A DNA stretch of 64,000 bases from Thermoplasmata archaeon (lineage in GTDB: Archaea > Thermoplasmatota > Thermoplasmata > Lutacidiplasmatales > SKW197), in the NCBI GenBank assembly GCA_049970095.1, contig JBMFNP010000001.1:18912-82911 (forward strand), given 5' to 3'. The notes under the pieces are model-generated. The model was not told the DNA's origin. It made no database searches and saw nothing but the letters and a program-made list of their open reading frames with translations. Numbering within the stretch: the stretch's first letter is position 1; every line of letters starts with the position of its first letter. A program made the position numbers and the translations under genes. Shown piece by piece: positions 3,001 through 30,281 of the stretch.

Positions 3001-4376
3001 TTAGGCTGCGAAAGGGCATGCAGCACACTCTCCAGTTCTTTCTTTTTAAGGTGATGGTAGGCATATGCCCTCTTCAGAATTTTCAGGGCTTCCTTTATCT
3101 TCCAGGTTCTGTGAATTCCCATTCCAATTAACACCTGTGCAAGCACATCTAAAGAGTTCACTGGAATTTCTACATGGTCCAGTTCTCTCCTTTCAATCTT
3201 TTCAATTATTGTGAAACATTCTAGAAAATCCAGGAGGTCTGTGGAAATAAAATAACCCATAGATATGCCGCCCAGTGTGTGTCCTGCCCTTCCAAATCTT
3301 TGGATTGCCTTGGAAATTGATTTTGGAGAAGAGATTTGTATTATACAGTCAACGCTGCCGATGTCAATTCCAAGTTCAAGTGAAGTAGAAGTCACTACAG
3401 CCCTCAATTCTCCTTTCTTTAAACTATCTTCCGTTTCCAGGCGTCTTTTTCTGCTCAAACTTCCATGGTGTGCATCAATGGCAGTTATGCCAAGCCCCCT
3501 CAGAACTTGCACAAGTTCTTCTGTGTGTTTCCTTGTGTTTGTGAAAATCATTACTGTGCGATGACGGTTGATAATCTCAGCACAGATTTTTGCGATCAGA
3601 AGATTTGCTTCTGCCCTTGGTTTGTTTTCTATGCCTGGCTGGTAGATTATCTGGATTTCATACTCTCTGCTGGTGTCTAAATTGAGAATTTCTACTCGTC
3701 TGGGTTTTCGGGCTGAAAAGCCTCCAAGATATTTTGCAATTTCTTCAATAGGGGACTGGGTGGCTGAGAGACCGATACGCACAAAACCTGGGGAGAGCTC
3801 CTCCAGGATTTCCAGTTCTGCAGAAAGCAAGGTTCCTCTTTTGCTGGCACAGAGTTCATGGATTTCATCAAGAATTACATATTCCACCTTATTTAGGTGT
3901 TCCTGGAATCTCCTTGAGTTTAACAGAATTGTGAAGGATTCTGGGGTGGTGATCAGAATGTGTGGTGCATTTTTTAGCATCTTGATTTTTTCTTTTTGAG
4001 GTGTGTCTCCAGTGCGCACTGAAACTCTTATGTTTCCCTCTAGCCCCATCTCTTCAAGGGGTAAAATAAGGTTTTTCCTTATGTCATTAGCCACTGCTTT
4101 GAGCGGAGAAATGTAGATGCAGTATACTCTATTTTCAAGTTTTCCCTTTTCATTGAGCGCTGCAAGATTGCTTAAAATTCCGAGGAATGCACTAAGTGTC
4201 TTGCCAGAACCCGTGGGGGCGCACACCAGCACATTTTTTCTATTCAGGATTCGCGGAATTGCCTGAATTTGTGGTTCGGAGAGTTTTCCATACTTTGATT
4301 TGAACCAGTTTCCAACATGGGGATGCAGCATTTGAATTATTATTTCCGATTGTTGTTCCACCACCACTGTGCCCAT
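1..4376 (-). CDS. lhr: Lhr-like large ATP-dependent (DEAD/DEAH-box) helicase, C-terminal end outside window (partial)
   Basis: I translated the minus strand in the frame whose codon first positions are 4376, 4373 and so on. It gives MGTVVVEQQSEIIIQMLHPHVGNWFKSKYGKLSEPQIQAIPRILNRKNVLVCAPTGSGKTLSAFLGILSNLAALNEKGK (Walker A/motif I). Further down it gives ...GELRAVVTSTSLELGIDIGSVDCIIQISSPKSISKAIQRFG (helicase C-terminal motifs). The frame stays open to position 1 with an Lhr-type C-terminal extension. It is not in the supplied ORF track, presumably because no stop codon lies inside the window. Confidence 0.85.
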   Translation of the reverse strand, partial: MGTVVVEQQSEIIIQMLHPHVGNWFKSKYGKLSEPQIQAIPRILNRKNVLVCAPTGSGKTLSAFLGILSNLAALNEKGKLENRVYCIYISPLKAVANDIRKNLILPLEEMGLEGNIRVSVRTGDTPQKEKIKMLKNAPHILITTPESFTILLNSRRFQEHLNKVEYVILDEIHELCASKRGTLLSAELEILEELSPGFVRIGLSATQSPIEEIAKYLGGFSARKPRRVEILNLDTSREYEIQIIYQPGIENKPRAEANLLIAKICAEIINRHRTVMIFTNTRKHTEELVQVLRGLGITAIDAHHGSLSRKRRLETEDSLKKGELRAVVTSTSLELGIDIGSVDCIIQISSPKSISKAIQRFGRAGHTLGGISMGYFISTDLLDFLECFTIIEKIERRELDHVEIPVNSLDVLAQVLIGMGIHRTWKIKEALKILKRAYAYHHLKKKELESVLHALSQPKTGRVDYHAKLEEFTTRRSAATYFYENVGTIPQEQNYQVFDEYGEHLGTLSEKFAEFLKPGDSFILGARVYDFVRRSSSKIFVKESTQKHATVPSWVGEINARTPELSRAIGETLEMLSQMDEPNLKKYLSRRCANEESVMYILTMIKKQKELGMPGNKKILVEWVEEEGRIASVVLSIAGRKVNEAVARYIASKLNLPCEMIVEDNGFAILTEDRIFLEALPNAEVFTTSMEKLIRNSDIFLTRFKQSAIRSFLILRNLRGKRASSFRISRQMESLLEKIHQKHPIYIEAMRESLYETLDLPNAVNFLERIKKRELQVYYGNGNNLSPFSLTLLNSVAKDSGFWIEKLRRIRKESEVKRYLLNEEILKFGFGSKEDALEFMQKYHVFHYPDENLEALVKEGKIHKGDVAGRKVYLYPDASSILEELKKGLKSKLLREICKYILTMPATAEEVATMLGVGHRDVEKTFQELLEDGNIVPVIVNGNEKFLSAPFLEFVLAKTSEYISRAEMDSRISAAVFGVKNIDECFQNFLGIRDPYVLFVRGLEKNWHPDDVLYGKYIGGRSVFVHVSDIPLLQSIYSLPLTENEKKVWKMLARPMSFSELKKYAGISSLRETLDKLEIGVLLKKKDGDPVIYEALPLYPRISEAEEICIERIVKGFGAVSVDFLSRYLNLPFEKVDAIVNNLVTKHKIKRAKILGTERTVFFSDEKLNGKMPESILLSAHDPYLEHRWAEIAGMLSEAYNLVYVSKSALAAFVNCEVRDDFLQVHSIWLKEENYIHLPEIWNWLIKYAKYRDVSIVHLNKIGGKWATEFTTYFKQGFFKSGSAIIHSELPYIEKVFPFDEIFARVLVLQGIPKLSNDALTVIEKYFGVMNEEELLLRAMRFAHPEELKNIYYAYGLSGGGYFTEQQISILKAIKSYGFAEGIAEEMKEILSNLDKPKTADELYSSVSISHRRFRAVLGTMLKTNIVYEAGGGILKITPEHGFSRTEATEFFIKKLLE

Positions 4377-14484: not shown

Positions 14485-15366
14485 ATGAAGATAGGAATCC
14501 TTACATACGATGATGAGTGGGCTGAGGAACTCATACACAATCTGAGTGTGCTTTTACCAGATGTGAAGACTGAAATCATTGGAATTTCAAATATGAATTT
14601 GGATGCTTGCATGGAATACAGGATAATTCTAGACAGACAATCATATCTTGACCCTTATCTGAGATGTGCAATGAAGCATGCTGCAATTCATGGAACATAT
14701 GTGATAAATAACCCTTTTTCCTGCTCTCTGGATGATAAATTCTTTTTTTATGGAATTGCAAGGAAACTCAAATTTCAGGTTCCAAAAACCCTGATGCTCC
14801 CACCTTTTGACCCTGATTATGAATTCGGACATGTGATTCCGCAACTCTCATGGGAATGGGTGGAGAAGGAAATAAGATTTCCAGCTGTGCTTAAGCCTGT
14901 GAACGGGTATGCATGGAGAAATGTGTATTTTGTGAACAATATAGAGGAACTCAAAGAAATTTATAAACAGACGGGAAGCGAAACCATGCTTCTCCAGGAA
15001 AAGGTGAATTATGAGGAGTATGTGCGTGCGTTCGTAGTTGGAAAAAAGGCAGTACTTCCTGTAAAATATTTGCCATCTGAACGAAAGTATTTTTCCATGG
15101 AAAATTTTCTATGCGAAAAGATGAAGGAAAAAATCAGAAAAATCTGTGTGAAGTTAAATACAATCCTTGACTATGACATAAACACCGTGGAAATTGGAAT
15201 TGAATCAGGTATTCCTTACCTCATTGACTTCTCAAACTATGTGCCAGAAATAAAGAGATACAATCTCCCTATTGAGTGCTACCACTGGGTTGTGGATAGA
15301 ATTACTGAATTGATTGTGAATTATGCCAGAAATCCGAAAAGGAACAGGAATATGTTTCCAATCTAA
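14485..15366 (+). CDS. ATP-grasp fold protein (RimK/glutathione-synthetase-like ligase)
   Basis: 293 aa in the ATP-grasp size range. It lies 3 nt downstream of pdaD, probably in the same operon. Confidence 0.55.
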   Translation: MKIGILTYDDEWAEELIHNLSVLLPDVKTEIIGISNMNLDACMEYRIILDRQSYLDPYLRCAMKHAAIHGTYVINNPFSCSLDDKFFFYGIARKLKFQVPKTLMLPPFDPDYEFGHVIPQLSWEWVEKEIRFPAVLKPVNGYAWRNVYFVNNIEELKEIYKQTGSETMLLQEKVNYEEYVRAFVVGKKAVLPVKYLPSERKYFSMENFLCEKMKEKIRKICVKLNTILDYDINTVEIGIESGIPYLIDFSNYVPEIKRYNLPIECYHWVVDRITELIVNYARNPKRNRNMFPI

Positions 15367-15515: not shown

Positions 15516-17462
15516 ATGGAAGTAAATACTGTTTGTGCCAGGGACTGCTATGATGCCTGTCTGATGAAGGTTATTATAGAGGAGGGAGGAATAAAGCGGG
15601 TTCAGGGAAGCAAAGCGCATCCGTTTACAAACGGATTTCTGTGTCCAAAGGGTTATAATTATATAAAATATCAGTATCATGAGGAAAGATTGCGATTTCC
15701 GATGAAAAGGTGCGGAAAAAAAGGTGAGGGAAAGTTTGAAAAAATCACATGGGAAGAGGCACTGAAAATCATTTCAGAAAAGATAAATGAAGTTTCTACA
15801 GAATTTTCTCCACTTTCTATTCTTGTGTATGAGTATGCTGGGCACATGGGGTTCCTAAGCCGTTTCTTTCCATACAGAATTTTTAACAAGCTCAATGCCT
15901 CTTTCGTAAACCATACACTCTGTGATGCTGCAGGGAACGAAGCGTTAAATCTGCACTTTGGCACCAGTTGTGGTGTCTCCCCGCTTATGCTGGAAAATGC
16001 AAAACTGATTGTTGTTTGGGGTGCAAACCTGTACAACACCTCAATTCATGCCTACCAGAAGATTTTAAGGGCAAGAAATAAAGGTGCAATTCTCATTGTT
16101 GTTGACCCTATAAAAAATAAACTTGCGGAAAATGCAGATGTGTTCCTCCAGGTAAAGCCTGGTACAGATGCGCTCCTTGCCTATTCAATTATAAAGATAC
16201 TTATTGAAAGCCAGCTAGTTGATTACGAGTTTATAAACACCTATACATCAGGGTTTGAGGAACTCAAGGCAGTATCACACACGGTTGATTTAAACCAGGC
16301 AGAGAAAATCACAGGAATTTCTGTTGAAAAACTGCGAGATGTTGCAGGCATAGTTGCATCTCTTAAACCAGCGATTTTTGTAATCGGTTATGGAATGCAG
16401 CGCAGAGCATTTGGAGGAAATGCTGTAAGGGCGGTTGCAATGCTTCCTATACTCACAGGAAATATCACCAGAGAGAGCGGAATAATCTATAACAACGCCA
16501 TAATCCCGGTGGATTTTGAGAAATTCACAGGGAAACATCTGAGAAAACTGGAACAGAGAATTTTTAACATGCAGGAACTCGGGAAAGTGCTTACAAACTC
16601 AAAATTGAATCCACCTGTAAAAATGGTGTTTGTTTACAATTCAAATCCTTGTGCTACGCTCCCAAACAGGAAAAGCGTGCTGAAGGGTTTTGAAAGAGAA
16701 GACCTTTTCACTGTGGTCCATGATATATTTCTCACAGAAACCGCACTTTATGCGGACATCCTCCTCCCTGCAAAAACCATGTTTGAGTTTGATGATGTGA
16801 TTTTCGGTTATTTTCTATCAAGTGTTGCAATTCAGAACAAAGTTGTAGATGCTGATGGAGAAGCGGTTTCCAATGCTGAGCTTGCAAGAATGTTAGCAAA
16901 GGCAATGAATTTTATTGAAAAGGAGTTATATGAGGAGGATTCAAAACTCATTGAAGAAGTCATAGAATTCGTGCCCCAGGATGCCAGAGCATTTTTAAAA
17001 AACGAGGGGTATTTGGTGCTTGAAAACAATCCTGCAATAACTGGCTTTGGTACAAAAACTGGAAAAATTGAGATTGCCTCCACTACCGCATGGAAGATAG
17101 GTGCACCCAAAGTACCTCTGCCAATATATGAAAAAACTGATGACTTCTGGCTACTCACTCCTCTCTCCAGGGACACAATTCACACCCAGTTTTCAAATAT
17201 ATCTTTGCAACCCCAAGAGATTGTTTACCTGAGCCCTGGGGATGCAGAGAGAATTGATGTGTGCAATGGAGACATTGTGGTAGTAGAGAGCATAAATGGA
17301 AAGCTTGAACTCGCAGTTGAGATCTGGGAAGCAGTGCAGCCAGGCACCGCAATAATTTTCTTTAGCAAATATGCAAATGTGCTTACTACAGATGAAAAAG
17401 CGGACCTTGGTGCTGGCTCAACATACAATTCTACACAGGTTAAGATCAAGAAAAAAACTTAA
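15516..17462 (+). CDS. molybdopterin (bis-MGD) oxidoreductase catalytic subunit, cytoplasmic, formate-dehydrogenase/formylmethanofuran-dehydrogenase-like
   Basis: N-terminal Fe4S4 motif CARDCYDAC. A long molybdopterin-binding core with a C-terminal molybdopterin dinucleotide-binding barrel. No signal peptide and no in-frame TGA. Confidence 0.75.
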   Translation: MEVNTVCARDCYDACLMKVIIEEGGIKRVQGSKAHPFTNGFLCPKGYNYIKYQYHEERLRFPMKRCGKKGEGKFEKITWEEALKIISEKINEVSTEFSPLSILVYEYAGHMGFLSRFFPYRIFNKLNASFVNHTLCDAAGNEALNLHFGTSCGVSPLMLENAKLIVVWGANLYNTSIHAYQKILRARNKGAILIVVDPIKNKLAENADVFLQVKPGTDALLAYSIIKILIESQLVDYEFINTYTSGFEELKAVSHTVDLNQAEKITGISVEKLRDVAGIVASLKPAIFVIGYGMQRRAFGGNAVRAVAMLPILTGNITRESGIIYNNAIIPVDFEKFTGKHLRKLEQRIFNMQELGKVLTNSKLNPPVKMVFVYNSNPCATLPNRKSVLKGFEREDLFTVVHDIFLTETALYADILLPAKTMFEFDDVIFGYFLSSVAIQNKVVDADGEAVSNAELARMLAKAMNFIEKELYEEDSKLIEEVIEFVPQDARAFLKNEGYLVLENNPAITGFGTKTGKIEIASTTAWKIGAPKVPLPIYEKTDDFWLLTPLSRDTIHTQFSNISLQPQEIVYLSPGDAERIDVCNGDIVVVESINGKLELAVEIWEAVQPGTAIIFFSKYANVLTTDEKADLGAGSTYNSTQVKIKKKT

Positions 17463-17510
17463 TATGGAACATAAAGACTCGGTGATCTCACATTTGCGGC
17501 AAACTGATAC

Positions 17511-17712
17511 GAGACTGTCAACTTAACACATCCTTGATCCAATAATTTGTAAACCCGACATCCTATACATGGATGGCAATGGCTTGCTCGTCATCAATAT
17601 CCCAAGCACACCATACCCTATATTCTTTCAATCATCCCATCCCTCCATAGGTAAACCTATGCTTAAGAGGGGGATGGGATTGGGAGTATTTAACCCTTAA
17701 GTTGACACTCTC
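17511..17712. repeat. 202-bp MITE-like element with 16-bp terminal inverted repeats (15/16 match) in a convergent 3' intergenic region
   Basis: Left end gagaCtgtcaacttaa (17511-17526) versus the reverse complement of the right end ttaagttgacaCtctc (17697-17712). The interior holds a ~12-bp stem (atcccatccctcc…gagggggatgggat) enclosing the palindrome ataggt-aa-acctat. Confidence 0.4.
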
Positions 17713-17735: not shown

Positions 17736-20700
17736 TTAGCGGACGATGGCTCCGCAGTATGGGCACACCACAAATTCGTTGCTGATTTCTTTTCCGCACT
17801 TCGGACATACCTTGCTGAGCGGTTTTTCAGGTGTTTCCATAACTGGTTCCGGTTTCCTTATCACTTTTTTCGGAGGAACAGGTGCCTGTGGTGGCGGTGG
17901 GACTTGTGCCTGCACTTCTGCCGGTGGTGAGGACTTCAAAACTACGGGTTTTGAGCGCGGTGGTGCATATGCTGGAGGTGGCTGGTATTGAGGTTGTGGG
18001 GGTGCATATTGAGGCAGGGGTTGCTGTACTGGTGGTCTATATTCTTCTGCCGGAGGTGCAGTTCTTACTGCTGGCGGTTGTTGTAGCATTGAAGTACCAC
18101 ATCTATAGCACACAGTTGCATATGCTTCATTGATGGCACCGCAACTCGGACATTTAACAGTTGCCCGTTTTGCCTTTTCTTCCTTGTTAAGCCACTGATT
18201 GTATGTCATGTATGTGGGCTGTGTTCTCCACCATCTCCAGAATGCGGCTTCAGAGAAACTTGCACCCATTTCCCTCTTTGCCTGTGCCCTGTACTTCTCA
18301 ACATATGCTTCGTATTGCTGGCGCATTGTTTTCTCATGACTCGTGGCTTCAACTTTCTTGCCAGTGAATGTTGTGCCACATTCTGGGCAAGTCTTGGCAT
18401 TTGCAGGAATCCACGCACCACACTCACTGCATCTTACTGTGCTAGTTTCGAATTCAGCACCGCATTTTGGACATTTTGTAGCATTTTCAGGAATTGGTGC
18501 ACCACATTCTCCACATTCGCCAAGTTTTCCAATACCCATTCTGGAAAGTAATAAAAGTACTACAATTACAACTACAACTATGATTATTATTATCACAATT
18601 ATAAGAATGAGCCACGATGGAATTCCTCCTTGCTGTGGTGCATTGACTTCCACCACATTGGGCACCTCGTAGGAGAGCGGGTTTACATCTGCACCCGCTA
18701 CCTCAAAATCAAGTATGTATTTGCCTGGCTTGTCAAACTTTGCATAAATTACAAACTGTCCATCCGAAGCCACAGTAGCAGGATATCTGGTTACGACATT
18801 TCCAGTGGATGCATCTTTGAGATAGAGAGTAACTCCCATCTGTATATCTAGATTTTCGGGTACCTTTACCTTCCCAACAAAGGTGCAATCTTCTGTTGTG
18901 GAGTATCCATCCGCTTTTATGAATGGCCGTGCATCCCAGTCAAGAGTCAACCTCTCTACGAAAATTGTATTGGAAGCATTCATGCCAGTATTGTTTACCT
19001 TTGCATAAATCGTGTGGCTGGCGTTGAGAAGTTTTGTGGTTACAACCCATGTGAATTCACATACAACCATACCTTTCCCTGGCACCTTCTGAATATTGGT
19101 CTTTCCAAGGAAGTTTGATTTTGTGAGACCATCAAGATAAAAGTCCACAGAAACACTTGAGGAATCAAGATCTCCGTCATTTGTGAGATTTACCCTGCAG
19201 ACAACTGTGGAACCGTACTGGGTTGAAGTGATCGGGGTGTTTTCTGTATCATAGAACCACACCTTACTCGCCATTGAGAGTTTAGCAGCGTACTTTACAT
19301 ATATATTGGTTTTAACTGCCTGTGTAGAGACGCCCTCTGTACATGAAGTTACCTGCACAGACACATTCTGGGAGCCACCTATGCCTGAGGGGATATCCCA
19401 ATTAATGCTTGCCACCGCTGTTGATTTTGCGTTTATTTTTGGAATTGTGGTTGTACCAATCTCACCAGCATCTGTGCTGAACACCACAACTACATTGGAT
19501 GCAAATCCGTTCCCATCGTTATAAATTTCCACACTGATTGTTGTGGAACCATTTTCAGTGGGTTCTGGAGATACAGTTAGGGCGCCAGCATTTATCTGCA
19601 AATCTGGGTATGTGATGATCACGGATTTTGTAGCAGTATTATCCCCCTTGTCTGAGATGGATTCTGTGGGTTCAGATGAAATTATGGATGCGGTGATTGT
19701 GTAATATGTTCCGGATGTGGGTGTCCATGAAACTTTTGCATCTCTCCTCTCTCCAATAGGGATGCTTGAAATGGTGTCTGTACCCAGATCACCGGATGCT
19801 GTACTGAATTTTACTATCACATTTCTTGCATCTCCGTCACCGCTGTTTTTAATTGTTGTGCGCACTTCTGCAGTTTGATTCACATTTACACTTTCGCTTG
19901 GTGCACCATTAACTAGCACAAATAGGAACTCAATTGAAAGAGAGGGTCTTCCTGCGATATTTAGGTTTGTGGAGTATGTGTTATCATTCTCACTCATTTC
20001 TGAAATGCTGTTATCTGGGTCCACTGTCGCATTGATGCTGAATATTCCCGATGCGTCAAAGGTGTATTGATAAACAAGATTCTGGCTTGAACCAGGTGTT
20101 ATGTCTGCAGGTAGAGAATCTCCGATGACAACACCATTTACTTCAAATCTAACAATTACACCCTTTGCCAGGGAAAGCCCATTGTTTTCTACACTCGCAG
20201 TCAGGTTGATAACATCTCCTTTTAGTGGCTGGGCAGGTGTTGTAAACAAATTGGTTATCTTCAAATTCGGAAGGTCAATTGAAATTCCTACGGGCGATGT
20301 TTCAAAGATGTTGTCTTCCTCAACCAAGTCAGGATATGGTGGGAGTGTAATGATTCCACTTCCTCTCTTAGTGTTCTGATAGGTGCAGTTTGCAATATAT
20401 GAGCCTATGAATATACTGTTTGGCAGTGTAGTCACATTAATAACATCAGAAGCCACAGGGTATCTGATTATTCCCGAAGCATCTGAGCGATTTGTTATTC
20501 CGTTTGCTGTAAGATACATTTTTATTAATGGATGTGCGTTGAGATCATTTGCAAGGGCTGCAAGGTTGTACTGGATCATAGAGGAAGAAGGAGTGTATTC
20601 CAGTGATGTGAGCTGGGCATTTTGAATTGGCATCCTATTCTGGTCATACACGGGAATCTTTGCCCAGCGGTATATAATTACCTGACTTGTGTTAAATGTA

Positions 20701-21944
20701 AAAATTGCAGGTGCATATTTCTGGCCATGGCCTGCAGCATCCAGCGGGGGTGTTTCTGCTTCATCAAATCCTACATTGAGAAGTTCCACTCTTGCGGAAT
20801 CGTAGAGCACCAGTTTATTTGATGTACCAAAAGAGAATACATTTGAATCCCAATCTATTGATATATTTGAGTTTATTACGGTCATCTGAGTGCTTCCATA
20901 CAATGTGAAGTTAAATTCATAGGCAGGCCTTACAATAACATCAAATCTTGTTATGGTTATATTTCCAGTAGTTCCATTATGGTTAAACCTGAACCTCAGT
21001 TTTTCCAGTCCCGCCAGTGTGGTTACAGAAAGCGGGATAACATCGCTCACCTGTTCACTAGCATTTGGTGTGAGCGGTAAATCCTCCCATGAAGTTCCTC
21101 CATTGTATGAAACCTCAAAACTTTTTGAACCATTATATTCTGATGTTGTGGTATAATCAATCTGGACAGATACTTTGCTGAGTTTCTCATATGCGATTTC
21201 AGTTGTATCCAACTGAGAGATGTTCAACCACTCCCCAGGATTGAGCTCTACATAACCTGGAAAGTCCTTTGGTGTAATCTGATAATCTACAATGTTTACA
21301 TTCTCATAGTATTTTTCAATTTTAGAATCTGCAATATATATCTTGGAGTTTATCGCAGTAATTACTGGTGCATCGTCATTGTCGTCTGTTTTTGCAGCAT
21401 CATTTGCCCATACAGAAGGCATTTCAGAAAGTCCTGTGATTGTGGATTCGTTCATGTACACTTCTGCTCCGTTAAGGTAGAGATATCCTGGAAACGAAAG
21501 TCTGGAATTTTTCATCACAATCTTTCCACCATTGCAGGTTAGATTGAATTTAAGATAGGGATTCACCATCATTACCGAGACGGTGATTGCACTGTCTTCC
21601 AGATATAGAATTCCACCCGAATTCACTACGAGGGTGTACTTTTTCTTTGGAGAATATGGATACACCCCACCGTCCTGAAGAAACTGAATTTCAATTCCTT
21701 TAACTGTCAGATTTCCACCAGAGTTTATTGTAATGTTTCCATCCATGCCTAAAATACCACTGGGTGCAGTTGAACGATCCAGTATTACAGTTGTATCCAC
21801 GACTAAATCATTTACAGAACTTTTGTTGCTTCCAGATTCGCTTGCCAGTATGCTCATGGAAAGCGGTAATGTGAGCAGCAATCCTATACACATTGCCCAA
21901 ACCATTTGCTCAGCTTGCTTTTTTGAATGCATCATACTTATCAT
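17736..21944 (-). CDS. giant type-I membrane surface protein: signal peptide, CARDB/beta-helix-like ectodomain, single TM, cytoplasmic tail with four double-zinc-ribbon motifs and Pro/Gln-rich linker
   Basis: 1402 aa. It has an N-terminal signal (…CIGLLLTLPLSMSILASESG) and CARDB-like repeats (e.g. LKGDVINLTASVENNGLSLAKGVIVRFEVNG). A TM helix IPSWLILIIVIIIIIVVVVIVVLLLL is followed by CGECGAPIPENATKCPKCG…CSECGAWIPANAKTCPECG…CPSCGAINEAYATVCYRCG…CPKCGKEISNEFVVCPYCG and a PPVQQPLPQYAPPQPQYQPPPAYAPP stretch. Confidence 0.8.
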   Translation of the reverse strand: MISMMHSKKQAEQMVWAMCIGLLLTLPLSMSILASESGSNKSSVNDLVVDTTVILDRSTAPSGILGMDGNITINSGGNLTVKGIEIQFLQDGGVYPYSPKKKYTLVVNSGGILYLEDSAITVSVMMVNPYLKFNLTCNGGKIVMKNSRLSFPGYLYLNGAEVYMNESTITGLSEMPSVWANDAAKTDDNDDAPVITAINSKIYIADSKIEKYYENVNIVDYQITPKDFPGYVELNPGEWLNISQLDTTEIAYEKLSKVSVQIDYTTTSEYNGSKSFEVSYNGGTSWEDLPLTPNASEQVSDVIPLSVTTLAGLEKLRFRFNHNGTTGNITITRFDVIVRPAYEFNFTLYGSTQMTVINSNISIDWDSNVFSFGTSNKLVLYDSARVELLNVGFDEAETPPLDAAGHGQKYAPAIFTFNTSQVIIYRWAKIPVYDQNRMPIQNAQLTSLEYTPSSSMIQYNLAALANDLNAHPLIKMYLTANGITNRSDASGIIRYPVASDVINVTTLPNSIFIGSYIANCTYQNTKRGSGIITLPPYPDLVEEDNIFETSPVGISIDLPNLKITNLFTTPAQPLKGDVINLTASVENNGLSLAKGVIVRFEVNGVVIGDSLPADITPGSSQNLVYQYTFDASGIFSINATVDPDNSISEMSENDNTYSTNLNIAGRPSLSIEFLFVLVNGAPSESVNVNQTAEVRTTIKNSGDGDARNVIVKFSTASGDLGTDTISSIPIGERRDAKVSWTPTSGTYYTITASIISSEPTESISDKGDNTATKSVIITYPDLQINAGALTVSPEPTENGSTTISVEIYNDGNGFASNVVVVFSTDAGEIGTTTIPKINAKSTAVASINWDIPSGIGGSQNVSVQVTSCTEGVSTQAVKTNIYVKYAAKLSMASKVWFYDTENTPITSTQYGSTVVCRVNLTNDGDLDSSSVSVDFYLDGLTKSNFLGKTNIQKVPGKGMVVCEFTWVVTTKLLNASHTIYAKVNNTGMNASNTIFVERLTLDWDARPFIKADGYSTTEDCTFVGKVKVPENLDIQMGVTLYLKDASTGNVVTRYPATVASDGQFVIYAKFDKPGKYILDFEVAGADVNPLSYEVPNVVEVNAPQQGGIPSWLILIIVIIIIIVVVVIVVLLLLSRMGIGKLGECGECGAPIPENATKCPKCGAEFETSTVRCSECGAWIPANAKTCPECGTTFTGKKVEATSHEKTMRQQYEAYVEKYRAQAKREMGASFSEAAFWRWWRTQPTYMTYNQWLNKEEKAKRATVKCPSCGAINEAYATVCYRCGTSMLQQPPAVRTAPPAEEYRPPVQQPLPQYAPPQPQYQPPPAYAPPRSKPVVLKSSPPAEVQAQVPPPPQAPVPPKKVIRKPEPVMETPEKPLSKVCPKCGKEISNEFVVCPYCGAIVR

Positions 21945-28967: not shown

Positions 28968-30281
28968 ATGTGGTATGTATATAGCAGTGAAATCATTCCA
29001 GAAATGGAAGGGCAGGAAGTAAAGGTTGCTGGCTGGATCGAAGAGATAAGAAATTTGGGGAGCATTGCCTTTCTTATATTGAGGGACCGCAAGGGCAGAG
29101 TCCAGTTAACTGCACTCAAGAAGGAAATGGGGAAAGAAAAATTCTTAGAGTTAGCAGGGCTTCCAAGAGAGAGTGTTATTGAGGTTACTGGAAAAGTTCA
29201 GAGAAGCAATGAAGCAAGAGCTGGATTTGAGATTATTCCAAAGAATTACCGTGTGCTTTCAACCGCAAAAACACCCCTGCCACTAGGAGTGGTAGATAAA
29301 GTGAATGCAGAACTGGACACCCGATTAGATAACCGTTTCATAGACCTGAGAAAGGATGATGTGCGCGCAATTTTTTTAATTAGAAATCTGGTATGTGCAG
29401 GCATGCGAAAGTATTTTTTTGAAAATGGATATATTGAGGTGCATACGCCAAAAATTGTTTTTGCAGGTGCAGAAGGTGGAGCTACCTTGTTTGAAATAGA
29501 ATACTTCGGGAGAAAAGCATATCTTGCCCAGAGCCCTCAACTATACAAACAAATGCTAATGGCTACAGGTCTGGACAGGATCTATGAAATTGCTCCCGCT
29601 TTTCGTGCGGAACCCTCAGATACAGTTAGACATCTCTCTGAGTTTATATCGCTTGATGTGGAAATTGCATATATCCAGGATTCTGGAGATGTAATGCGTG
29701 CATTAGAAAACCTGATAGCCAGCACACTCTCATTTGTTGCTGAACACGGGAGGAGAGAACTTGAGAAACTCAGATGTAATGTGAAGGTTCCAAGTGTTCC
29801 ATTCAGGAAAATTACCCACAGGGAATGTCTTGAAATACTTAAATCACTGGGTTGGAATGGAGGAAATACTGTAGATACAGAAGGAGAAAAACTTCTAGGC
29901 GATTATGTATTGAAAAATTATGGAGAGGAATTTTTCTTCATAACAGAGTTCCCTACTGAGGTAAAGAGAGGAACTTTCTATGCGATGAGGAAAGATGAGA
30001 ATCCAGAACTGACAGCGTATTTTGATCTTGAGTACAAGGGACAGGAACTAGTGTCTGGAGGTCAGCGAGAGCACAGATATGAAAAACTTGTTGCTCAGAT
30101 GGCTGAAAACGGAATAAATATTTCTACATTTGAGCCCTACTTGAAAGCGTTCAGATACGGAATGCCCCCACATGGTGGCTTCGGTTTGGGTATAGATAGA
30201 TTTGTGCAGAAAATGCTGAATCTTGGGAACATAAGGGAAGCTGTGCTTTTCCCGAGAGATAGGGTGAGAGTGACACCTTAA
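28968..30281 (+). CDS. aspS: aspartate--tRNA ligase (archaeal type)
   Basis: 437 aa. N-terminal OB fold (EVKVAGWIEEIRNLGSIAFLILRDRKGRVQLT) and class II motifs (FRAE, GGQREHRY, …GMPPHGGFGLGIDR). Confidence 0.9.
   Translation: MWYVYSSEIIPEMEGQEVKVAGWIEEIRNLGSIAFLILRDRKGRVQLTALKKEMGKEKFLELAGLPRESVIEVTGKVQRSNEARAGFEIIPKNYRVLSTAKTPLPLGVVDKVNAELDTRLDNRFIDLRKDDVRAIFLIRNLVCAGMRKYFFENGYIEVHTPKIVFAGAEGGATLFEIEYFGRKAYLAQSPQLYKQMLMATGLDRIYEIAPAFRAEPSDTVRHLSEFISLDVEIAYIQDSGDVMRALENLIASTLSFVAEHGRRELEKLRCNVKVPSVPFRKITHRECLEILKSLGWNGGNTVDTEGEKLLGDYVLKNYGEEFFFITEFPTEVKRGTFYAMRKDENPELTAYFDLEYKGQELVSGGQREHRYEKLVAQMAENGINISTFEPYLKAFRYGMPPHGGFGLGIDRFVQKMLNLGNIREAVLFPRDRVRVTP

Follow-up and report, generated by a model that had tools for sequence, protein, structure and literature searches.

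What occupies the spacer between two convergent genes in this Thermoplasmata genome, a mobile DNA or a structured RNA? The question concerns a 202-bp segment at positions 17511 to 17712 of the 64,000-nucleotide stretch of DNA analyzed here (referred to as the window), for which the initial annotation had proposed either a miniature inverted-repeat transposable element (MITE) or a small RNA. As described there, the segment lies between two convergent stops, at 17462 and 17736. The molybdopterin oxidoreductase gene (15516 to 17462, plus strand; Pfam PF00384, PF01568, and PF04879) ends 48 nt before the element, and proteins identical to its product are labelled as belonging to Thermoplasmata archaeon MAGs. 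On the other side, the gene coding for a 1402-aa CARDB and multi-zinc-ribbon protein (17736 to 21944, minus strand) has its stop 23 nt from the element, and a T-rich tract (CCTTTTCCTTTTTC, on the strand of this gene) is located in between.

Both neighborhoods show further features. The 1402-aa protein carries three CARDB domains and several zinc-ribbon or double-zinc-ribbon modules at its C-terminal end; it is full length in a closely related strain (L058; collected loci are given as L numbers), and short-read assemblies break within or beside its gene. Upstream of the oxidoreductase gene, an ATP-grasp-like ORF of 293 aa (14485 to 15366, also present in L059) is represented by two genes of 101 and 190 aa in the otherwise identical L001 and L002 (L001, 6423 to 7300), a discrepancy that points to a frameshift between the sequences or to a faulty assembly.

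Inverted repeats and fold of the spacer element

The two ends of the element, GAGACTGTCAACTTAA (17511 to 17526) and TTAAGTTGACACTCTC (17697 to 17712), are complementary at 15 of 16 positions (94%) and lie 170 nt apart, exactly as first reported. The interior contains a hairpin at 17634 to 17680, assigned to neither strand, with arms at 17634 to 17646 and 17667 to 17680. Its loop holds the palindrome ATAGGT-AA-ACCTAT (17647 to 17660), which was likewise confirmed. For the inner stem, a length of 12 bp had been given: ATCCCATCCC (17634 to 17643) and GGGATGGGAT (17671 to 17680) do pair perfectly over 10 positions, and the rest of the stem, up to about 12 pairs, is imperfect. On both strands, the element folds better than its shuffled counterparts (z = -4.5 and -3.95), largely through pairing of the terminal inverted repeats (TIRs) and the inner stem. 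The longest ORF inside the element is 43 aa, and the internal ORFs yielded no Pfam family match. No transposase match was obtained in the 64-kb window by tblastn with the transposase of the family described below.

By itself, the inverted repeat does not go beyond what chance would produce in 64 kb. When the window was shuffled by mononucleotides, 7 of the 20 shuffles contained at least one 16-nt inverted repeat with at most one mismatch within 400 nt. The repeat gains its significance only from an external match to an insertion sequence (IS) family. The window also contains a weak look-alike of the TIR, GAGAGTGACACCTTAA (30266 to 30281), that has 2 to 3 mismatches and no partner and sits where two convergent ORFs overlap at their ends; it recurs in L057 and is most likely a product of chance.

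The insertion sequence family sharing the element's ends

Databases containing one genome per prokaryotic species were scanned with a 23-nt degenerate pattern covering both element ends. Six genomic loci were recovered, all of them in archaeal MAGs labelled Thaumarchaeota, Nitrososphaera, or "archaeon." The same pattern found 45 loci in JGI metagenomes (51 together with the genome loci) and none in viral contigs. The scan loci that carry the exact 16-mer GAGACTGTCAACTTAA are hot-spring-type archaeal MAGs and metagenomes, and the 16-mer occurs in them as inverted pairs with a span of 140 to 825 bp.

These data bear directly on whether the segment could be an accidental inverted repeat next to an ordinary hairpin, with no biological identity. 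The frequency of comparable repeats in shuffled windows would fit such a view. However, the termini of a single IS family are matched by both an exact 16-mer and its 15/16 partner, and these two are correctly inverted relative to each other; the 23-nt pattern is expected only about twice in 596 Gb, as estimated from its information content; and all of the pattern matches are in archaeal IS or MITE copies. A chance origin, to which we give a negligible probability, is effectively refuted.

An intact parent-type IS was found at 2947 to 3640 of L060. It is 694 bp long, is bounded by perfect 19-bp TIRs, and contains a single ORF of 210 aa (P0121) that starts with a GTG at 3001 and stops inside the right repeat (IRR; ..GCC TTA AGT TGA). 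The transposase frame is also uninterrupted in L050 and L038, and it is frameshifted in L033 and L042. The family transposase matched the NCBIfam model NF033587 (IS6 family) with E values of 6e-30 to 3e-33 over model positions 1 to 196 of 202, at scores of 94 to 115 bits, which lie under the curated cutoff of 125, and it matched Pfam PF13610 (DDE_Tnp_IS240) at 27.9 to 39.7 bits, with a gathering cutoff of 27. Its nearest annotated relatives are PGAP-annotated haloarchaeal IS6 transposases (27 to 33% identity over >90% of the length), and its motif IESWFSKLKRR conforms to E--F---K-R, which Harmer & Hall described as the signature of archaeal IS6 members (PMC6807381). The models that best match the parent IS are, accordingly, those of the IS6 family.

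Target duplications adjoining the GAGAC tips were found for several copies: GTCTTTAG (8 bp, L035), CTTTATGA (8 bp, L042), TTTTTCA (7 bp, L018), and AAGCTG (6 bp, L017). Target repeats of 8 bp are typical of IS6 elements (PMC7986276). In most of the family copies inspected, the intact L060 copy included, there is no target duplication. With 694 bp, one 210-aa ORF, TIRs of 16 to 19 bp, and 8-bp duplications in L035 and L042, the parent IS has the size and structure of an IS6 element. Compared with the IS6 consensus TIR (GG tip, cTGTt, and caaa), GAGACTGTCAACTTAA shows CTGTC and, at position 7, the G; its tip, however, is GA, and caaa is missing. Deviations from the TIR consensus have been reported for archaeal IS6 members (PMC6807381).

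As for distribution, the named transposase matches all derive from MAGs of Nitrososphaerota, "Ca. Caldarchaeum," Thermoproteota, or Korarchaeota, and a parent transposase was detected in Thermoplasmata neither by single-sequence nor by profile searches. A haloarchaeal IS6 copy (L061), read for TIRs, showed no clear terminal repeats. A literature search with the terminal sequence returned unrelated primers only, and it appears that this IS/MITE family is not described in the searchable literature.

Individual full-length copies differ in their coding start and surroundings. The 696-bp copy at 313 to 1008 of L050 has an open frame but no in-frame ATG, GTG, or TTG before codon ~170; in other copies, GTG or another start codon lies a few codons upstream of ..VSIGQLY. 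The intact L060 copy is situated about 175 bp from a Cas10/Cmr2-type gene of a type III CRISPR-Cas system (L060, 1 to 2771) and upstream of a PIN/MazE toxin-antitoxin pair. When a 656-bp copy in L014 (3146 to 3801) was compared with those in L024 (7031 to 7686) and L051 (5250 to 5905), one flank was identical and the other unrelated, and one flank of this copy recurs in L025 (1207), shifted by 4 nt. The switch of flank between L014 and L024/L051 could be an IS-mediated rearrangement, as expected for IS6-type elements, or could result from assembly chimeras at repeats.

The flanks of the family also contain a weak positional motif, A-T-A-A-n-T-T-T-T-n-C, which resembles a TATA box (e.g., TATATAAATTTTTC). 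It is located at -23 to -13 from the tips, about 12 nt outside, and is present on either side in roughly 12 to 15 of the 63 distinct flanks (family copies L003 to L053 and L060). In L060, it occurs on both sides at equal distance, as an outer inverted repeat, and in the right flank of the window element, CCTTTTCCTTTTTC lies at a distance similar to that of the motif in the family flanks. The motif could reflect a target preference near promoters, or it could be another repeat. A reverse-complement 8-mer at the left-repeat (IRL) flanks of L036 and L040, considered as a signature of inversion, was compatible with chance and was dropped.

Besides full-length copies, the family includes internally deleted derivatives (MITEs) of ~140 to 240 bp at several different loci. 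Elements of 141 to 238 bp retain pieces of the transposase frame, consisting of N-terminal codons in L003, L036, L040, L027, and L029 and C-terminal codons in L032. Three loci whose flanks are unrelated share one form of 141 to 148 bp (93 to 97% identity). The short derivatives are proliferating products of internal deletion. There are also many partly deleted copies of intermediate size (403 to 656 bp). In L007 (SJ3.Bin70), two family elements, one at 130 to 331 and the other from 338 onward, are only 6 bp apart, either in tandem or nested, and the tip of the second is degenerate (TTGACTGCCAACTTAA).

From 11 long IS copies, we then prepared a DNA profile and matched it to the window element with nhmmer. 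HMM positions 1 to 28 aligned to 17712 through 17685 (E = 0.023) and positions 648 to 677 to 17539 through 17511 (E = 1.1). Since the IRL end of the profile falls at 17712 and the IRR end at 17511, the element, with the parent IS taken as reference, is on the minus strand. Its IRR-equivalent TIR, GAGACTGTCAACTTAA (17511 to 17526, plus strand), is identical at 16 of 16 positions to the IS-copy termini in L003 to L053 and L060. Its IRL-equivalent end, which includes subterminal similarity (GAGAGTGTCAACTTAAGGGTTAAATACT; 17685 to 17712, minus strand), matches the family terminus at 15 of 16 positions within the 16-nt TIR proper (17697 to 17712); over its first 24 positions, 22 agree with the IS consensus GAGACTGTCAACTTAAGGCTTAAA. 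The TIRs of the intact L060 copy, like those of dozens of further copies, thus agree with the two element termini (16/16 and 15/16), which are also correctly inverted relative to each other. Moreover, the right end of the element, on the minus strand, reads ..GAT GTG TTA AGT TGA (D V L S stop), parallel to ..W V A L S stop in the parent.

The match is limited to the ends. For the 170-nt interior, nhmmer detected no homology to the IS profile, and the sequence of the internal hairpin is lineage specific and absent from the Caldarchaeales IS copies. Within the interior, the word TAAGCATAGG (17656 to 17665, minus strand) may be left over from the sequence surrounding the start of the parent transposase (..K V S I G..). 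Seventeen family ends have it 69 to 75 nt from the IRL, and in the window element its distance from the tip is 49 nt. In 12% of shuffles, a word of 10 nt or more was also shared with some part of the IS, and TAAGCATAGG is only suggestive of such a remnant. The interior also seemed similar to a truncated element of L004 (common AGAGGGGGATGG), but with the TIR removed this similarity was not significant, and it was set aside.

Mobility, copy number, and strain differences of the window copy

The proposed MITE identity held for the origin of the element, both of whose termini are IS6-family TIRs with full-length and short copies elsewhere, but the hallmarks of mobility sought for this particular copy, a target duplication and a second copy in the window, were not obtained. 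The 8-mers that adjoin the element, ACTGATAC and AGAATGAA, agree at 2 of 8 positions and do not form a target-site duplication. By sensitive blastn, the spacer occurred only once in the 64-kb window; ~40 kb from additional contigs of this species contained no copy, and the genome and metagenome scans contained no other copy of the exact 202-bp element. In IS6 elements, duplications are frequently lost when transposition is replicative and intramolecular or when copies recombine with each other (PMC7986276). Considering this frequent loss and the many family copies that have no duplication, a missing duplication does not weigh heavily against an IS6 origin.

Assembly records offer information on copy number. 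Two contigs, CAZHTK010000040.1 (9499 bp) and NODE_4158 of ERZ3623746 (6016 bp), both end at position 17565, which is base 55 of the element. When a SPAdes-type de Bruijn assembler with a final k of 55 passes from unique sequence into a repeat, the contig stops at the repeat's first k-mer. Contigs ending at the first 55-mer of the element therefore suggest that it has at least two genomic contexts. With the assumption of k = 55, a low coverage (2.4x), and records that are possibly non-independent, this hints that the element is multicopy.

The same observations have to be weighed for another explanation, namely, that a full-length IS6-type insertion decayed in place by internal deletion and never moved as a short element, leaving a single-copy, immobile fossil. 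Such a fossil would have the same ends, and it would agree with the missing duplication, with the failure to find a second copy in the window or another exact copy in the scans, and with an interior diverged past recognition; the partly deleted copies of 403 to 656 bp indicate that decay in place is common in this family. However, both tips are almost perfect despite the unrecognizable interior, the two contigs stop exactly 55 nt into the element as if it had at least two contexts, and a 97-bp Thermoplasmata element with the same subterminal sequence is present at a different locus. We regard decay in place as unlikely.

This 97-bp element was found at 4287 to 4383 of L055 (GCA_038896575.1, Thermoplasmata archaeon), a locus whose oxidoreductase is 69% identical to that of the window. 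It has variant ends (GAGACCATCAACTTAA and GAGACCTTCAACTTAA) and is at a nonorthologous site. Its left end, GAGACCATCAACTTAACACCTCC, has the subterminal CAC(A/C)TCC in common with the element of the window and L058, unlike the Caldarchaeales IS. In L062 and L054, the flank is homologous to that of L055 up to the insertion point, the element is absent, and the sequence beyond that point cannot be aligned, so that neither locus provides a clean empty site. The 97-bp element (subterminal CACCTCC) is directly upstream of a tyrosine-recombinase gene, the called start codon of which is inside the repeat; it has no target duplication, and a contig end in L056 was likewise noted.

Conservation in a relative had been named as evidence against mobility, and the strain represented by L058, 99.75% identical to the window over 12.1 kb, does keep the element at the same site. 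An empty orthologous site was not found, as relatives at 65 to 70% amino acid identity are not syntenic downstream and L058 is occupied. Exact-protein lookups for further contigs (with the internal 43-aa ORF, the giant protein, and the radical-SAM neighbor) returned no record, and a contig found through the tRNA-synthetase neighbor stops before the element.

The two strains nevertheless differ within the spacer. Of 29 differences in 12.1 kb, 7 are in the 275-nt spacer, including all 3 indels. Inside the element, there are 2 substitutions and 2 indels, one of which breaks a predicted pair, and L058 has a 2-nt deletion in the hairpin loop region that leaves the stem intact. This excess of strain differences is consistent with a lack of functional constraint, and there is no sign of selection. 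An additional difference was observed at L058 2070 to 2146 (window 17452 to 17526), where a 1-nt deletion in the A-run before the oxidoreductase stop causes a frameshift. The L058 oxidoreductase call is 21 codons longer as a result (669 versus 648 aa) and ends at a TAA inside the left TIR, so the element supplies the stop codon of this gene in L058.

The distribution of the differences is relevant to the second half of the original proposal, that is, a gene for a structured small RNA, or else a cis-acting 3' untranslated RNA element, in which the long terminal helix would be functional. A fold that surpasses shuffled sequences on both strands, within a spacer between convergent genes, would suit such an RNA. 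Yet strain differences are concentrated in this spacer, with indels and a broken predicted pair among them, and the helix-forming ends are explained as transposase-binding TIRs that are common to protein-coding IS copies. Searches of the whole window with Rfam covariance models gave no hit at the gathering score and, at E values up to 10, only noise (eukaryotic lncRNA and miRNA models at E = 0.5 to 7). No tRNA or tmRNA was found in the scan for these genes. Scanning for sigma-70 promoters and intrinsic terminators, with a consensus that is of the bacterial type and not designed for archaea, also detected no promoter- or terminator-like site. An RNA identity is, in our opinion, very improbable.

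We also considered an inverton, i.e., a DNA segment that a site-specific recombinase inverts at two inverted repeats. The element is intergenic, its repeats flank a segment of ~170 bp, and it has no target duplication, all of which would suit an inverton. But the segment has a single orientation in the window, in L058, and, for its first 55 nt, in the L001 and L002 assemblies. Furthermore, it is placed between two 3' ends, where a switchable promoter would have no obvious target, and the repeats belong to an IS with a DDE transposase. The probability of this explanation is close to nil.

Interpretation and comparison with IS6-type systems

Taken together, the 202-bp sequence at 17511 to 17712 is probably a MITE, a noncoding, nonautonomous derivative of an archaeal IS6-family insertion sequence from which the transposase gene has been lost. 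Its ends match those of an IS family in which an intact parent-type IS, proliferating short derivatives, and 8-bp duplications were all observed. We infer that the window copy arrived by transposition and that it is multicopy in its host. With both IS ends kept and the transposase gene lost, the element would be a mobile-element relic, that is, parasitic DNA of an ordinary kind and neither a novel RNA nor a novel regulatory device. Where it now lies, 48 nt and 23 nt past two convergent stops, the element is most likely a neutral passenger.

By analogy with known IS6 elements, the two retained ends of ~16 to 24 nt, in inverted orientation, would serve as sites for the DDE transposase of the family, and the element would move only when this enzyme is provided in trans by a full-length copy elsewhere in the cell. 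The transposase would nick at the GAGAC tips, which would then be joined to a target opened by a staggered 8-bp cut, and the resulting cointegrate would then be resolved by host recombination. Intramolecular events, or recombination between copies, could give rise to copies without matching 8-bp flanks, such as the one in the window.

A wider reading is possible, although we hold it only tentatively and consider it doubtful: the window element could be the first sign of an undescribed archaeal group of IS6-like IS and MITEs with near-identical 16-nt ends across phyla (Thermoplasmata versus Caldarchaeales/Nitrososphaerota, Thermoproteota, and Korarchaeota) and with a possible preference for insertion ~12 nt downstream of TATA-box-like motifs (TATAAATTTTTC). 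If true, this would mean recent inter-phylum transfer among coresident thermophiles and insertion at transcription start regions, with derivatives that occasionally provide neighbors with stop codons or hairpins, as in L058.

For annotation purposes, our results turn an odd structured spacer into mobile-element debris instead of a candidate regulatory RNA. The GAGACNNTCAACTTAA ends, together with a transposase that terminates in ..(A/V)LS with its stop inside the right end, provide a search signature for IS6-type elements and MITEs in MAGs of thermophilic archaea, the short-read assemblies of which are fragmented by such repeats. With an intact 694-bp IS, several proliferating MITEs, and near-identical ends in two archaeal phyla, the family is of modest interest for work on archaeal mobile elements.

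Three known systems are suitable for comparison. IS26 and IS257, the bacterial archetypes of IS6, presumably share their mechanism with the family described here, in which replicative cointegrates and 8-bp duplications are involved, and in these two elements direct repeats are frequently missing after intramolecular transposition or recombination (PMC7986276). Unlike IS26 and IS257, the archaeal IS has a TIR sequence that is only loosely related to theirs, and the mechanism of archaeal members would be the same by inference.

Archaeal IS6 elements have reportedly been sorted into clades Ai to Aiv by Varani et al. in 2021 and into clades a to d by Harmer & Hall in 2019. The archaeal branch (ISC774, ISPfu, and ISH14/ISH29-type elements) resembles the parent IS in its length of ~694 bp, in one DDE ORF of ~210 aa with the E--F---K-R signature, in TIRs of 16 to 19 bp with CTGT and a G at position 7, and in 8-bp duplications; like that branch, the parent IS matches the NCBIfam IS6 and ISC774 models and Pfam DDE_Tnp_IS240. 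In contrast to the branch, its scores of 94 to 115 bits stay below the curated cutoff of 125, its identity to haloarchaeal IS6 is 27 to 33%, its tip is GA instead of GG, its length of 694 bp is slightly under the quoted 700 to 890 bp, and its stop codon lies within the IRR. Archaeal members, as Harmer & Hall have argued, may not belong in IS6/IS26 proper (PMC6807381).

The third comparison concerns the IS6-family MITEs listed in ISfinder, MITEBth2 and MITEHarch3, which are 227 and 336 bp long (PMC6807381, PMC7986276). Compared by description, the window element is distinct from both in its lineage and terminal sequence (GAGACTGTCAACTTAA, with a GA rather than a GG tip), in its Thermoplasmata MAG host, and in having no target-site duplication. 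Like them, it is a short element that carries both IS6-type DDE ends with no ORF between them, and at 202 bp it falls into the same size class.
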